From a virus (lineage: Duplodnaviria > Heunggongvirae > Uroviricota > Caudoviricetes): DNA of 6,053 nt. The translations under genes were made by a program, and so were the position numbers. Numbering within the stretch: position 1 is the stretch's first letter; every line of letters starts with the position of its first letter. A model generated the notes under the pieces. The model made no database searches. It was not told the origin of the DNA and worked only from the letters and a program-made list of their open reading frames with translations. Location: the IMG/VR virus record IMGVR_UViG_2541047174_000011. The stretch is one strand, 5' to 3'. Positions 2,229 to 6,053 of the stretch are shown one piece after another.

Positions 2229-4324
2229 GGATTATCTTCCGCACGCTCCGTCCGCAGTTTTTTCTTCCGGCGACGGCGTTTTTCTGCCCCGGCCGTCAGT
2301 TCCGGGGATACCGTTTCACCAGAACGCTCCTGCGGGAAGACGAGCCACGTTTCCCGCTGTGCCCAGTCCGGTGCGGAGGGCCAGCGGATCTTTTCGTAAC
2401 CATGCAGAACGGCAAGCGCATCCGCATAAACCAGCAGGTCAAACGCTTCGTTAGCGCCCCTGCCCGGTTTTCGCCATTTTCCGTCACTGCCGCGCTCTTC
2501 ATAGGTCAGCTCATCGTAAAACCACCGCCCCAGCCAGTCGGGAAAGTGGATATAGTTCGGCCCTGGTGTGTCACGCCACAGGGCATTATTTACACGATCC
2601 TTAAACGCATCCGTCTGAACCAGCCACAGCGCGACATCGCCACTGGCTCTGGCACGGCGGGCACTTCTGCCGGTATTATCCGGGAAGGTTCGGTTAATCA
2701 GCCTGTCACGGCGAAGTCCATCCCCCTTGAACAGAAACACCCTGTTGCCCAGTCCGTCACTCCGGCAACGACGCCAGAAACGATAGGCGTTATCTGTCAC
2801 CCCGGCTTCCCCTCCCGTATCCACCGCCATGGCCATCAGACGCATGCGCACATCCGGATCAGAAGCCAGCGGCCATGTTTTATGGAACACATCCGTCAGC
2901 AACAAATCCCAGTCCTCCGGATATGCCGCCGGATCAACCGGCAGACTTTCACCGTTGGGACTGCAGCGCAGTGAATGCCGGATGTTGTAGCGATCAACAA
3001 TCCAGCGTTCCCCCTGCTCTCCGTATCCGGTGATCTGCACAACAAAACGGCGATTTTTACCGCCCTGTACGTCAACCGTTGCCTCAATAAAACGCACACC
3101 ATCCGGCACAGATCGCCGGGGAAACGGCTCGGCACGCTGTTCAAGCAGTTCACTTTTACGCTGTTCCGTGGCTGAACGGGGCAGATAGGGTCGTCCGATA
3201 TCGGTGTTCACCACCGCTTTCAGGGTCTCTTCACTGCCGGTTCGCTCATACTCTTCTTCTGCCGCCAGCAGTTTAAAAATCAGTTGTTCCCAGGTCTGAA
3301 ACGCCGCAGCTGGCCCCTCCATCCAAAATGACGCAATCCGGGAGTTTCGTGGCGTTCCGGTGATACTGCCGTCCGCCGCCGCCCGTTCACCTTCACGAAG
3401 CCAGATCCCCTGGTTATTCAGTTCGCGTTTCTGCTCAGGGGCAATCAGCCCGCGACAATGCGGACACATCAGACGGGCAGCCTGACCGGCAGCCACAAAA
3501 TCCGGGTTATTCCGGTATCCGGTCATGTTATCCATCACCGGCTGAAAATATTCCCCGCAGTGCGGACACGGCCAGTACCACCGGCGGCGGTCTCCCCGGT
3601 TATACAGTGACAGGATCCCCGTTGTTGGCGGTGCCTCATGTGCGCCACCACAACGCCATTTGGTATCGGTGATATCCCGCCCCGGTGAACTCTCGACCAG
3701 GGTCATCCCCGAGGACATAAAGGTGGTGGTACGCTTTGAGGCCAGCGTGAAGGCATCCCCTTCCCCGTCCACATTTTCAGGGAAACGGTCATAATCCGTC
3801 AGCGCCACACGACGGTAATCCGAAGAGGAAAAGACGGTGATCGACGGCCAGCCAATCTTCAGGAAGGAGCCGTCAAGAAACATTTTATCGTGGACGTTGT
3901 TGTCATTACGGGAAGGACTGAGGCGCTTGCTGACCTCCGGACTGTGGCGAAACGTCCTGGAAAGACGCGTTCTGGAATGCTCACGCGCCTTCGTCTCAGT
4001 CATCTGCACCACCAGCATATCCGCCGGATCACAGATGATGCCGTACACAATCCAGCCATCAATCAGCCCTTCGGTTTTCCCGGTTCGCGCAGGTCCCACA
4101 AACACCACCGCGTCATATTCACGGGCTGATAATGTATTAATGGGGTCAATCATATAGGGCGTCAGCGATGACTCCCACGGACCGGAAGTATTGGCTCCCC
4201 GTGGAACCCGCATATAACGCCTGATGGCTTCCGCTACTGGTAACCGGCTGGGTGGGCGAAACAGCGAGGCCACTTCGCGCCAGATATCGGATGCGCGGCT
4301 ATGGCTCTCGTTCACCTGATTCAC
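2201..4324 (-). CDS. Terminase large subunit, lambda GpA family
   Basis: 707-aa ORF. N-terminus (...SLFRPPSRLPVAEAI...) is lambda gpA-like. Walker A P-loop VGPARTGKT is encoded at 4073..4096, and two CPHC motifs at 3455..3568. GTG start at 4324..4322 overlaps the small-subunit stop (ATGTGA), with a GAGG 7 nt upstream. Confidence 0.92.
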   Translation of the reverse strand: MNQVNESHSRASDIWREVASLFRPPSRLPVAEAIRRYMRVPRGANTSGPWESSLTPYMIDPINTLSAREYDAVVFVGPARTGKTEGLIDGWIVYGIICDPADMLVVQMTETKAREHSRTRLSRTFRHSPEVSKRLSPSRNDNNVHDKMFLDGSFLKIGWPSITVFSSSDYRRVALTDYDRFPENVDGEGDAFTLASKRTTTFMSSGMTLVESSPGRDITDTKWRCGGAHEAPPTTGILSLYNRGDRRRWYWPCPHCGEYFQPVMDNMTGYRNNPDFVAAGQAARLMCPHCRGLIAPEQKRELNNQGIWLREGERAAADGSITGTPRNSRIASFWMEGPAAAFQTWEQLIFKLLAAEEEYERTGSEETLKAVVNTDIGRPYLPRSATEQRKSELLEQRAEPFPRRSVPDGVRFIEATVDVQGGKNRRFVVQITGYGEQGERWIVDRYNIRHSLRCSPNGESLPVDPAAYPEDWDLLLTDVFHKTWPLASDPDVRMRLMAMAVDTGGEAGVTDNAYRFWRRCRSDGLGNRVFLFKGDGLRRDRLINRTFPDNTGRSARRARASGDVALWLVQTDAFKDRVNNALWRDTPGPNYIHFPDWLGRWFYDELTYEERGSDGKWRKPGRGANEAFDLLVYADALAVLHGYEKIRWPSAPDWAQRETWLVFPQERSGETVSPELTAGAEKRRRRKKKLRTERAEDNPWITSGGWL

Positions 4325-4797
4325 ATATCGGCCTCATCACAACAGTCAATGACTGCCTTTTCCAGTGTGTCGCGGATCTCATCAACCACAATCTGTACTT
4401 CATTCAGTTGTGATGCAGTCCACCCCCTGTCCCTCTCCAGCCGGTCAGGCCAGGTTTCCAGTACCTGAACTATCGCTTTCACCACGACAGAAAAGGACCG
4501 CCTGACATCACTGACTGGCACAAGCTGAACAGTTTCATGCTGAAATTTAAGACGCTCGCGCTCGGACTGATACCATGCCTTACGAGCGTGAGGATCCATA
4601 TCCTCATCTTCGGAAGATGGTGGTTTTTCCAGCAACGAAGTTATCAAATCCGTCAGGAGATACAGTTTTTTCTTTTCATTACTGCCTGGTGCAAGAGGAA
4701 CATCCGCCATTCTGGCGGCAACAGTCTGCCGGTGCAGACCTGAAAGGGCTGCCAGTTGATTAATATTTAACTTCATATTTTTCAGCTCGCCGTCCAT
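4321..4797 (-). CDS. Terminase small subunit, Nu1-like (DNA-recognition subunit)
   Basis: 158-aa ORF directly upstream of and overlapping the large-subunit start. N-terminal MKLNINQLAALSGLHRQTVAARM is helix-turn-helix-like and resembles the lambda Nu1 N-terminus (MEVNKKQLADIFGASIRTIQNW as remembered). ATG at 4797 is preceded by GGAGGG with a 6-nt spacer; an alternative ATG at 4776 is possible. Confidence 0.8.
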   Translation of the reverse strand: MDGELKNMKLNINQLAALSGLHRQTVAARMADVPLAPGSNEKKKLYLLTDLITSLLEKPPSSEDEDMDPHARKAWYQSERERLKFQHETVQLVPVSDVRRSFSVVVKAIVQVLETWPDRLERDRGWTASQLNEVQIVVDEIRDTLEKAVIDCCDEADM

Positions 4798-4889
4798 TTA
4801 CATCCCTCCACATAAACCGCAGAACAGAAGTGACTCTGTTTTTTTGTAAAGAAATGCCGCCATATAAAGATGTCGAACAAAAAACAACC

Positions 4890-4955
4890 ACAATCATCAT
4901 CTTTTTAATACTAACAGCATTAAAAACAACAAGTTACCATCATGATGATGATGAC
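4890..4955. repeat. Inverted repeat in the cosB-like region, candidate terminase small-subunit (R-element) sites flanking an AT-rich spacer
   Basis: ATCATCATC at 4893..4901 and its exact reverse complement GATGATGAT at 4944..4952, separated by 42 bp of AT-rich DNA. A perfect 10-bp palindrome CATCATGATG at 4938..4947 overlaps the right arm. The element lies between the candidate cosN and the small-subunit start. Confidence 0.4.
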
Positions 4956-4982
4956 GATAAAATCACAAAAATGCGCCTTTTT

Positions 4983-5000
4983 CCGCGCCCGCCCGCCCCG
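4983..5000 (-). other. Candidate cosN (cohesive-end nicking site) of the phage genome
   Basis: Minus strand reads ACGGGGCGGGCGGGCGCGGAAAAAGGCGCATTTTTG, against the lambda cos junction ACG|GGGCGGCGACCT|CGCGGGTTTTCGCTATTTATG (from memory); the first 9 nt are identical, followed by a similar GC block and homopolymer run. It lies about 190 bp upstream of the small-subunit start, as in lambda. Exact nick positions cannot be read from sequence. Confidence 0.5.
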
Positions 5001-5033
5001 TGTTCAGGCCCACCCCACCAGGAGGACCCGCAA

Positions 5034-5054
5034 AAATGATAATGGTTATCATTT
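5034..5054. promoter_or_regulatory. Perfect 21-bp palindrome (9-bp arms, 3-bp spacer), Fur-box-like; possible operator or cosQ-side element
   Basis: AAATGATAA-TGG-TTATCATTT. By my hand alignment, 5032..5050 matches the 19-bp Fur consensus GATAATGATAATCATTATC at 15 of 19 positions. It overlaps the ATG at 5036 of a 40-aa plus-strand ORF that follows AGGAGG at 5020..5025. Confidence 0.3.
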
Positions 5055-5258
5055 GCAACAAAATCCAGTTTCTTCCACCATCGCACCGGACTGGCGACTA
5101 TGAGGGGACAACACCGCGCTCCGTTAACGCGGTAAACCCCGGTGTGTATCGTTTTTGATTATCCCCGCACACTCGCGCAGAGGATTCTCCCGGTCGGGCT
5201 GCGGTCTCTGTTAATGCAGGAATACGGCGACAATACCGCGCATGAATAATAAGGTCGC

Positions 5259-5483
5259 TCAACACACTGGCTGTAATGCAGCGGATACCATGCGGCATTT
5301 AGCGGCATTCATCGTACACTCAACGGTTAGCTCTTCATTCGTGGCATTCACCTGAAAGGTCCTGGAGTGTAATTGCGTACATTTACCACTGAACGAACCT
5401 TCAACAAGAACACGACCACGCTGCAAAATACGGAACGGAATTGTTCCCTGAAAAGGCTTTACGGTTACCAATAATTTCTTCAT
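5259..5483 (-). CDS. Hypothetical small protein (74 aa), function unknown
   Basis: ATG at 5483..5481 is preceded by GGAGAA with a 5-nt spacer and lies 23 nt downstream of the Rz stop. Product MKKLLVTVKPFQGTIPFRILQRGRVLVEGSFSGKCTQLHSRTFQVNATNEELTVECTMNAAKCRMVSAALQPVC has four Cys and no signal peptide or TM segment. The ORF track lists it from an upstream TTG (5501). I do not recognise a family. Confidence 0.45.
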   Translation of the reverse strand: MKKLLVTVKPFQGTIPFRILQRGRVLVEGSFSGKCTQLHSRTFQVNATNEELTVECTMNAAKCRMVSAALQPVC

Positions 5484-5506
5484 GCATTCTCCGAATAACA
5501 AAAATA

Positions 5507-5974
5507 CTAGTTAATACACTGAGTGCGGATATATTCCTGAAGCATTCTCAATGCTGCCTGGTCGCTGATGATTCCGTCTCTGATACCGAGAACGTTTCGT
5601 CCAGCAACCGGAGAGAGTTCGACGGCGGCATCATTGCCCACGCCGGAGGTGCCGGTGGCTTCACGCACGGTACCGGGGCAGGTGGCGTTGATCCGCAGGC
5701 GCTTACGACCAGCGGCAACATCAGCACGCAGAGTTTCATTTTCAGCTCTCGCATCGGCTAATTCCCTCGAGTATTTTGCATCGAGCGCAGCAACATCACG
5801 CTGGCGCACCTGCATGTCAGTAATGGTGGCATTCGCCTGTTCCAGCTCTCTGGCTTTTTTATCGCGCTGCGCTTTGTAGGTGAGCGCGTTGTCACGGTAA
5901 TGGTTTGTTGCCAGCCACAGCGCACCACAGCCAACCGCCAGGACAATAATCACCACACACAGAACACGGTTCAT
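5507..5974 (-). CDS. Rz: i-spanin Rz (inner-membrane spanin subunit)
   Basis: 155-aa product with N-terminal TM segment ([19 protein letters not shown]) followed by [45 protein letters not shown]..., near-identical in places to lambda Rz ([45 protein letters not shown] as remembered). Confidence 0.9.
5548..5754 (-). CDS. Rz1: o-spanin Rz1 (outer-membrane lipoprotein spanin subunit), fully embedded in Rz in the +1 frame
   Basis: Product [45 protein letters not shown]... has a lipobox (LVVSAC) and a proline-rich mature region, matching lambda Rz1 (MLKLKMMLCVMMLPLVVVGC...CVKPPPPPAW as remembered). Start may be the first Met (5754) or the Met five codons in. Confidence 0.85.
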
Positions 5975-6053
5975 CTCTCTTTCACCCCACCAGTCCCGAT
6001 AACGTCAGGACTCGCCAGGCGGTGGAAAAGAAAATGGCAACCAGCATGACTAA
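5971..6053 (-). CDS. Probable endolysin (lambda R-like) C-terminal fragment; 5' end beyond window
   Basis: The reading frame ending ...[26 protein letters not shown] has its TGA stop overlapping the Rz ATG (ATGA), the same coupling as lambda R/Rz. Weak resemblance to the lambda R C-terminus (...KEAGGTVREIDV as remembered). Only 26 codons are visible, and another frame (…[23 protein letters not shown], stop 8 nt before the Rz start) cannot be excluded. Confidence 0.4.

Follow-up and report, generated by a model that had tools for sequence, protein, structure and literature searches.

ORF74, probably a moron-type passenger gene between the lysis and packaging genes of a lambdoid prophage

In phage lambda, the interval between Rz and cos carries cargo such as bor. 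A similar position in the DNA studied here is occupied by ORF74, which the original prediction took for either a small conserved late protein or a moron. Is ORF74 a gene, which of these two descriptions fits it, and what could its product do? We analysed the window, that is, the whole stretch of 6,053 nt, in which the late operon ends and the packaging and head genes begin; every one of these genes is encoded on the minus strand (Table 1).

Table 1. Features of the window and of the related loci mentioned in the text
Feature	Position	Strand	Remarks
ORF74 CDS	5259..5483	minus	74 codons + stop; ATG 5483-5481, stop 5261-5259
Shine-Dalgarno GGAGA of ORF74	5488..5492	minus	5 nt 5' of ATG
Single-gene block	5244..5506	minus	23-nt leader, ORF74, 15-nt trailer; absent from VT1-Sakai
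Rz i-spanin	5507..5974	minus	PF03245, E=1.5e-39; last gene of the lysis cassette, upstream neighbour of ORF74
Rz1 o-spanin	5548..5754	minus	PF06085; embedded in Rz
Non-coding interval, presumed cos region	4798..5258	minus	460 nt; from ORF74 stop to small terminase
DUF1441-type small terminase	4321..4797	minus	
gpA-type large terminase	4324->2201	minus	
78-aa gene at lambda W position	1992-2228	minus	between large terminase and portal
Lambda-family portal	1992->490	minus	
Long-form phrog_2571 gene, phage YDC107_1 (Ravinvirus)	L003:2701-3297		between lysis genes and Nu1
phrog_4280 genes	L009:4265-4471, L112:4305-4511, L111:4267-4509		
phrog_4280 genes	L008:5294-5515, L007:2782-3003, L011:4227-4385		
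Weak family relative, 80 aa, Pseudomonas prophage	L113:3237-3479	minus	after tail-chaperone genes

ORF74 is a protein-coding gene

ORF74 is co-directional with Rz, and the gap between the Rz stop codon and the ATG of ORF74, given as 23 nt in the original prediction, was measured as 23 nt. The prediction also called the ribosome-binding site credible, and this was borne out: relatives with 62-100% protein identity have GGAG or GGGG at the Shine-Dalgarno position, and the ATG is kept as well. The product has 74 aa, a mass of 8.2 kDa and a pI of 9.7, and exactly this protein is deposited as WP_000735655.1 (RefSeq) and BCI50138.1 (GenBank, phage PPyecE_EH1910). The claim that it has no signal peptide agrees with inspection of the sequence and of a structural model, in which none is apparent: MKK is followed by just five hydrophobic residues, and strand 1 of the model is made up of residues 2-8, inside a segment with a pLDDT of 93. 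No lipobox was found in ORF74 either.

Pairwise dN/dS between ORF74 and four homologues (proteins 62-76% identical) was 0.20-0.51. Third codon positions carry the most substitutions in nearly all pairs compared, and the stop codon is the exact end of similarity between the locus and some of its relatives. Searches returned 66 close and about 30 distant protein homologues. Because purifying selection, the third-position bias and the close and distant homologues are found together, ORF74 is more than a chance frame; it is a genuine protein-coding gene.

ORF74 is also widespread. About 21% of the complete E. coli genomes (1135/5426) have it, most of them at 95-100% DNA identity, and the exact protein is present in at least 1000 contigs. 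Carriers include many O157:H7 and other Shiga-toxin strains, and the gene lies in prophages that are relatives of Stx-converting phages. Rows were sampled from top to bottom of the ranked E. coli matches, and each was annotated as a CDS for a 'hypothetical protein'. ORF74 is already catalogued as uncharacterised in RefSeq, GenBank, UniRef and PHROGs, and a literature search by accession and by PHROG or family name found no paper mentioning the protein. In one database protein (P0002, 125 aa, from a 1.5-kb contig), a DUF1737 domain at the N-terminus is fused to a 100% identical copy of ORF74; a deletion within a lysis cassette, or a gene-call fusion there, probably explains it.

The slot of ORF74 in the late operon

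The phage VT1-Sakai has an Rz gene of the same kind, and its downstream cos/terminase flank is also the same. In this phage, the Rz stop codon is followed by about 9 nt and then by sequence that starts here at 5243, and the 263 nt of 5244-5506 are missing. The junction shows that this block is a clean single-gene indel. Some related phages therefore do without ORF74, as VT1-Sakai does; the gene is not universal, and this absence says nothing against a phenotype. Mosaicism at the locus is shown directly by the split matches of Stx phages, many of which match in the cos/terminase flank alone (query 278-723) and others in Rz and ORF74 alone (query 1-468). The G+C content of ORF74 is 45.3% (GC3 44%), compared with 55.3% for Rz (GC3 56%) and 57.4% for the large terminase gene.

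The slot after the lysis genes recurs far beyond close relatives of the window. In relatives at least 60% identical, the gene always comes after the lysis cassette and before the packaging genes, on the same strand; it usually follows the last lysis gene directly, and other accessory genes often stand before the terminase. Conservation and synteny hold with three types of lysis cassette (class II holin/lysozyme/Rz; holin_2_3/DUF1327/lysozyme/Rz; holin_8/holin_3_7/M15 peptidase) and three types of terminase (DUF1441 with gpA; Nu1 with gpA; HNH, Terminase_4 and TerL). Four more phage contigs have relatives of 28-40% identity in this slot. Other relatives are found between Q and a holin gene (L006), and in tail operons, where they follow the major tail protein or the chaperone genes (L007, L008, L118-120).

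Consensus scans, which real sites can escape, detected neither a sigma-70-like minus-strand site in 5400-6053 nor a minus-strand terminator-like site after the ORF74 stop codon. The sole minus-strand hairpin in the terminator scan lies inside ORF74 (5432-5447, codons 13-18) and has a weak stem of 5 bp with a T-rich tail behind it. This hairpin probably has no function, since such hairpins are as frequent in shuffled sequence and this one overlaps the conserved coding segment GTIPFR. The scan found no minus-strand terminator-like site in 4798-5258, so late transcription should run through this interval. Given the 23-nt gap and the lack of a predicted promoter or terminator, ORF74 would most likely be transcribed by read-through from the late promoter via S-R-Rz/Rz1, and it would be translated from its own Shine-Dalgarno sequence.

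ORF74 had been placed between the spanins and cos. The spanins are upstream as stated, and the second half of the claim is merely plausible: the lambda cosN 12-mer has only chance-level matches in the window, and cos was therefore not located. A scan of the window with Rfam gave no match, and a repeat search in 4798-5520 revealed nothing notable. In the presumed cos region, a G+C-rich tract, CCGCGCCCGCCCGCCCCGTG…, occupies about 4975-5030, and CAT/GAT triplets form a run with an imperfect inverted repeat of 22 nt (4894-4915 / 4933-4954). In some genomes, RefSeq calls a 90-aa 'hypothetical protein' on the opposite strand of this interval (L005:1918-2190), which looks doubtful. Farther downstream, the 78-aa gene at the lambda W position does not match Pfam gpW and has only a weak DUF6148 match (E=0.025); its RefSeq version is a shorter hypothetical protein of 70 aa.

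Family and predicted fold

ORF74 belongs to PHROG family 2571. Residues 1-73 match columns 100-172 of the 291 columns of the phrog_2571 HMM (E=2.8e-28, 99.9 bits), and every distant relative tested matches the same columns, about 100-172. Scans of ORF74 against Pfam, NCBIfam and PADLOC gave no match, and a profile search of PDB sequences returned only noise (E>=0.1). We searched 1.8 billion representatives exhaustively with a HMMER profile and obtained 50 matches, which, spurious repeat proteins aside, are mostly stand-alone proteins of 72-82 aa. The matches treated as spurious are four giant repeat proteins (P0081, P0083, P0086 and P0103); at least P0103 is a DUF5122 propeller repeat that matches a short segment of the 'QSDGKVLVGG' type. 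No viral locus was found for P0084. Distant members start at the same M-K and share F17, Q21, G33-K34, Y43, V45 and A68.

The profile has 291 columns because it was built around proteins of 198-280 aa from N15-like (Ravinvirus) phages, in which the segment resembling ORF74 is an internal domain. Compared with ORF74, which is the bare core, these long forms have an extra N-terminal coiled-coil-like region and a C-terminal extension. In two of them (L003 and P0074), the coiled-coil-like N-terminus is followed by the ORF74-like domain at about 100-172 and by an extension of about 100 aa; the 198-aa form may itself be truncated, as it ends where the 280-aa version continues. We considered whether ORF74 is a truncated pseudogene of an N15-type protein, and rejected this, since the stand-alone M-K form is the commonest and ORF74 is under purifying selection. 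The stand-alone core domain is thus the commonest and complete form of the family. We also rejected DNA binding, which the basic pI of ORF74 might suggest, because family members vary in pI from 4.4 to 9.7 and net charge is not conserved.

A second association was observed in the family. In P0068 (181 aa), the ORF74-like domain is fused to a C-terminal part that matches phrog_2091 and phrog_2735, and a separate phrog_2735 gene lies directly downstream of an ORF74 homologue at L006:5222-5623. It is possible that these families represent a second functional link to the family of ORF74.

AlphaFold2 predicted ORF74 from a 22-sequence alignment with a pLDDT of 90.7 and a pTM of 0.77. The model is a small all-beta sandwich of seven strands and one short helix. 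Foldseek comparison with PDB and with viral models (BFVD) gave nothing at E<=0.001, and the structural neighbours are generic sandwich folds only.

Taken together, we consider with moderate confidence that ORF74 is a moron-type passenger, carried by a lambdoid, Stx-phage-like prophage of E. coli in its late operon, and encodes a binding module. The product would be a soluble protein of 8 kDa in the cytoplasm, a beta-sandwich of seven strands that belongs to PHROG family 2571, and would most likely bind a protein or glycan partner. This is deduced from fold and family only, namely from the type of fold, the lack of an enzyme-like motif and the lack of a conserved cysteine set. A role as a catalyst, or as a core component of lysis or packaging, seems less likely than that of a binding module, and we infer that ORF74 is dispensable for both processes. 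Nothing found points to an unusual mechanism; ORF74 is an ordinary catalogued hypothetical protein.

Other readings and comparison with known systems

The alternative that survives best, while still unlikely, is that the product associates with the virion or helps to assemble the tail, and that it is related, as a free-standing protein, to the beta-sandwich insertion domain of the tail-tip protein J. As a late product, it would attach to the tail tip, the capsid or the cell surface. The domain in question, PF24801 (FNIII-A_GpJ), corresponds to lambda J residues 86-207, which fall in the N-terminal hub-domain part of gpJ (PMC11101478). Four of 30 relatives of ORF74 match PF24801 with 12-15 bits (E 0.02-0.2), below the Pfam gathering threshold of 27 bits, and three of these four, rescanned singly, matched in a similar register. 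We also built a J-domain profile from eleven diverse J proteins; ten diverse phage records served for this, as a viral contig scan with the J domain yielded only copies 98-100% identical. Aligned with the ORF74 family by hhalign, this profile gave a probability of 47% and E=1.9e-4 over 42 columns; the score of 27.5 was reached by none of 200 column-shuffled profiles (maximum 20.6), and reversed profiles scored 15-18. Several signals thus point weakly the same way, from the ORF74 family toward the J domain. On the other hand, ORF74 itself does not match PF24801 at E<=1, and the J domain is a part of about 120 aa inside a protein of about 1100 aa, whereas ORF74 is a free-standing protein of 74 aa.

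A second alternative, likewise improbable, starts from a recurrent neighbour. In several contexts, a phrog_4280 gene (68-80 aa) stands immediately behind the ORF74 homologue, on the same strand. The pair comes after Rz in L009-L013 (Salmonella and E. coli), after a spanin resembling Rz in L112 and after other genes of lysis type in L111; in L007, L008 and L118-L120 it lies within tail operons. These varied contexts indicate that the pair appears in different genomic places. ORF74 could be the orphan half of a two-gene module, such as an exclusion, regulatory or toxin-antitoxin-like pair, from which the partner was lost. The partner proteins have the motif GWV.GW.VVR..PWHL.GVYAT…YGSHR.GSDDF and occur widely in Enterobacteriaceae, Pseudomonas and Vreelandella; in one source, a relative bears the label DUF2188. 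By eye, they look better conserved than the neighbouring ORF74 homologues, which are about 30% identical to ORF74. Pseudomonas prophages add to this picture, as the 80-aa gene listed in Table 1 has the SGK…Y.R.Y motif of the family, matches the family weakly (hmmsearch E=0.005 in a small set) and is in convergent orientation to a phrog_4280 gene; it could belong to phrog_2571 as a very distant member.

Several observations weigh against such a module. Four partner sequences gave no tblastn match in the window at E<=10, and phrog_4280 is missing from the whole clade of ORF74 and from the loci L014-16, L109, L110, L003 and L006, and it also occurs alone, for example in L116. No PADLOC defence model matches ORF74 or five of six long-form relatives at E<=0.1; the sixth has a lone stray ZorA match (E=0.006), which lies on an unrelated extension. 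The adjacency may be functional, or it may merely reflect shared insertion hot spots, that is, sites permissive for both genes.

ORF74 as an accessory component or regulator of lysis, and as the last gene of the lysis cassette, is a rather poor candidate. The same slot in very diverged phages could mean that the function is tied to lysis or packaging rather than that the gene is a free rider, and XepA and YomS, beta-sandwich proteins of the lytic cassettes of Bacillus prophages (PDB 6i56), would be positional analogues under the lysis reading. At a comparably low level of likelihood, the J-domain and partner leads could be combined: PHROG 2571 would be a free-standing offshoot of the J-type tail-tip hub insertion domain that forms a small mobile late-gene module with phrog_4280, located variously in phage genomes, and ORF74 would be its partner-less version, retained in about a fifth of E. 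coli genomes, among them many Shiga-toxin-producing strains. If so, the module could modify adsorption or host range, or exclude other phages.

The cysteines of ORF74 (C35, C56, C63 and C74) raise a further reading, a cysteine-dependent small protein that is either metal-binding in the manner of a zinc ribbon or disulfide-bonded, which we regard as very improbable. The original prediction rightly counted four cysteines in the 74 residues; its statement that GKC, VEC and AKC lie within 22 residues did not hold, as C35, C56 and C63 span 29, and it is C56, C63 and C74 that fall within 19. C35 is invariant and C56 nearly so, only among the E. coli and Salmonella relatives, and C63 and C74 are limited to one subclade. 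Distant members of the family have 0-3 cysteines, none of them conserved family-wide, so a metal or disulfide function is not supported. In zinc-ribbon or Cys4 proteins, four Cys/His ligands are conserved together and are usually arranged in CxxC pairs; ORF74 has no such pair, its model is a beta-sandwich and not a zinc ribbon, and in the predicted cytoplasmic location disulfides are unlikely. Finally, the reading of ORF74 as a non-gene, a chance frame in the Rz-cos spacer, to which its shortness, the lack of a Pfam or NCBIfam match and its omission from several phage records might lend some weight, is effectively refuted by purifying selection, the conserved ribosome-binding site and start, consistent RefSeq CDS calls, homologues down to 26% identity with a shared motif, and a confidently predicted fold.

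Once the function of ORF74 is established, a small gap in the late-operon map of medically relevant phages would be filled. The J-domain similarity and the phrog_4280 pairing are two leads of modest follow-up value; if either proves functional, a new small accessory module would be defined.

The preferred reading, that of a late-operon passenger, can be compared with morons and with bor. The moron concept, which covers the accessory cargo of lambdoid late operons, reportedly goes back to Juhala et al. (2000) and Hendrix et al. (2000). A classical moron is an extra gene whose two flanking genes are neighbours in a related phage; it has its own promoter and terminator and a base composition unlike that of the flanking phage genes, and it is expressed from the repressed prophage. 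ORF74 is inserted between genes that are adjacent in VT1-Sakai and deviates in base composition. The consensus scans assigned it no promoter or terminator of its own, and it is therefore not a classical self-contained moron; for the same reason, and because it lies on the late-gene strand, expression from the repressed prophage is not expected. Thus, both halves of the original choice apply: ORF74 is a small conserved protein of PHROG 2571 and also a single-gene indel, as long as the word moron is not taken in its self-contained sense. Bor of lambda is a lipoprotein or membrane protein, and Bor-like cargo has a signal peptide with a lipobox and often lies on the opposite strand. Unlike Bor, ORF74 is predicted to be neither a lipoprotein nor a membrane protein, and it lies on the same strand as the late genes. 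Like accessory cargo such as bor, it lies between Rz and the terminase flank, in the slot to which the prediction had assigned such cargo in lambda, is present or absent as a single gene and has a lower G+C content than its neighbours.
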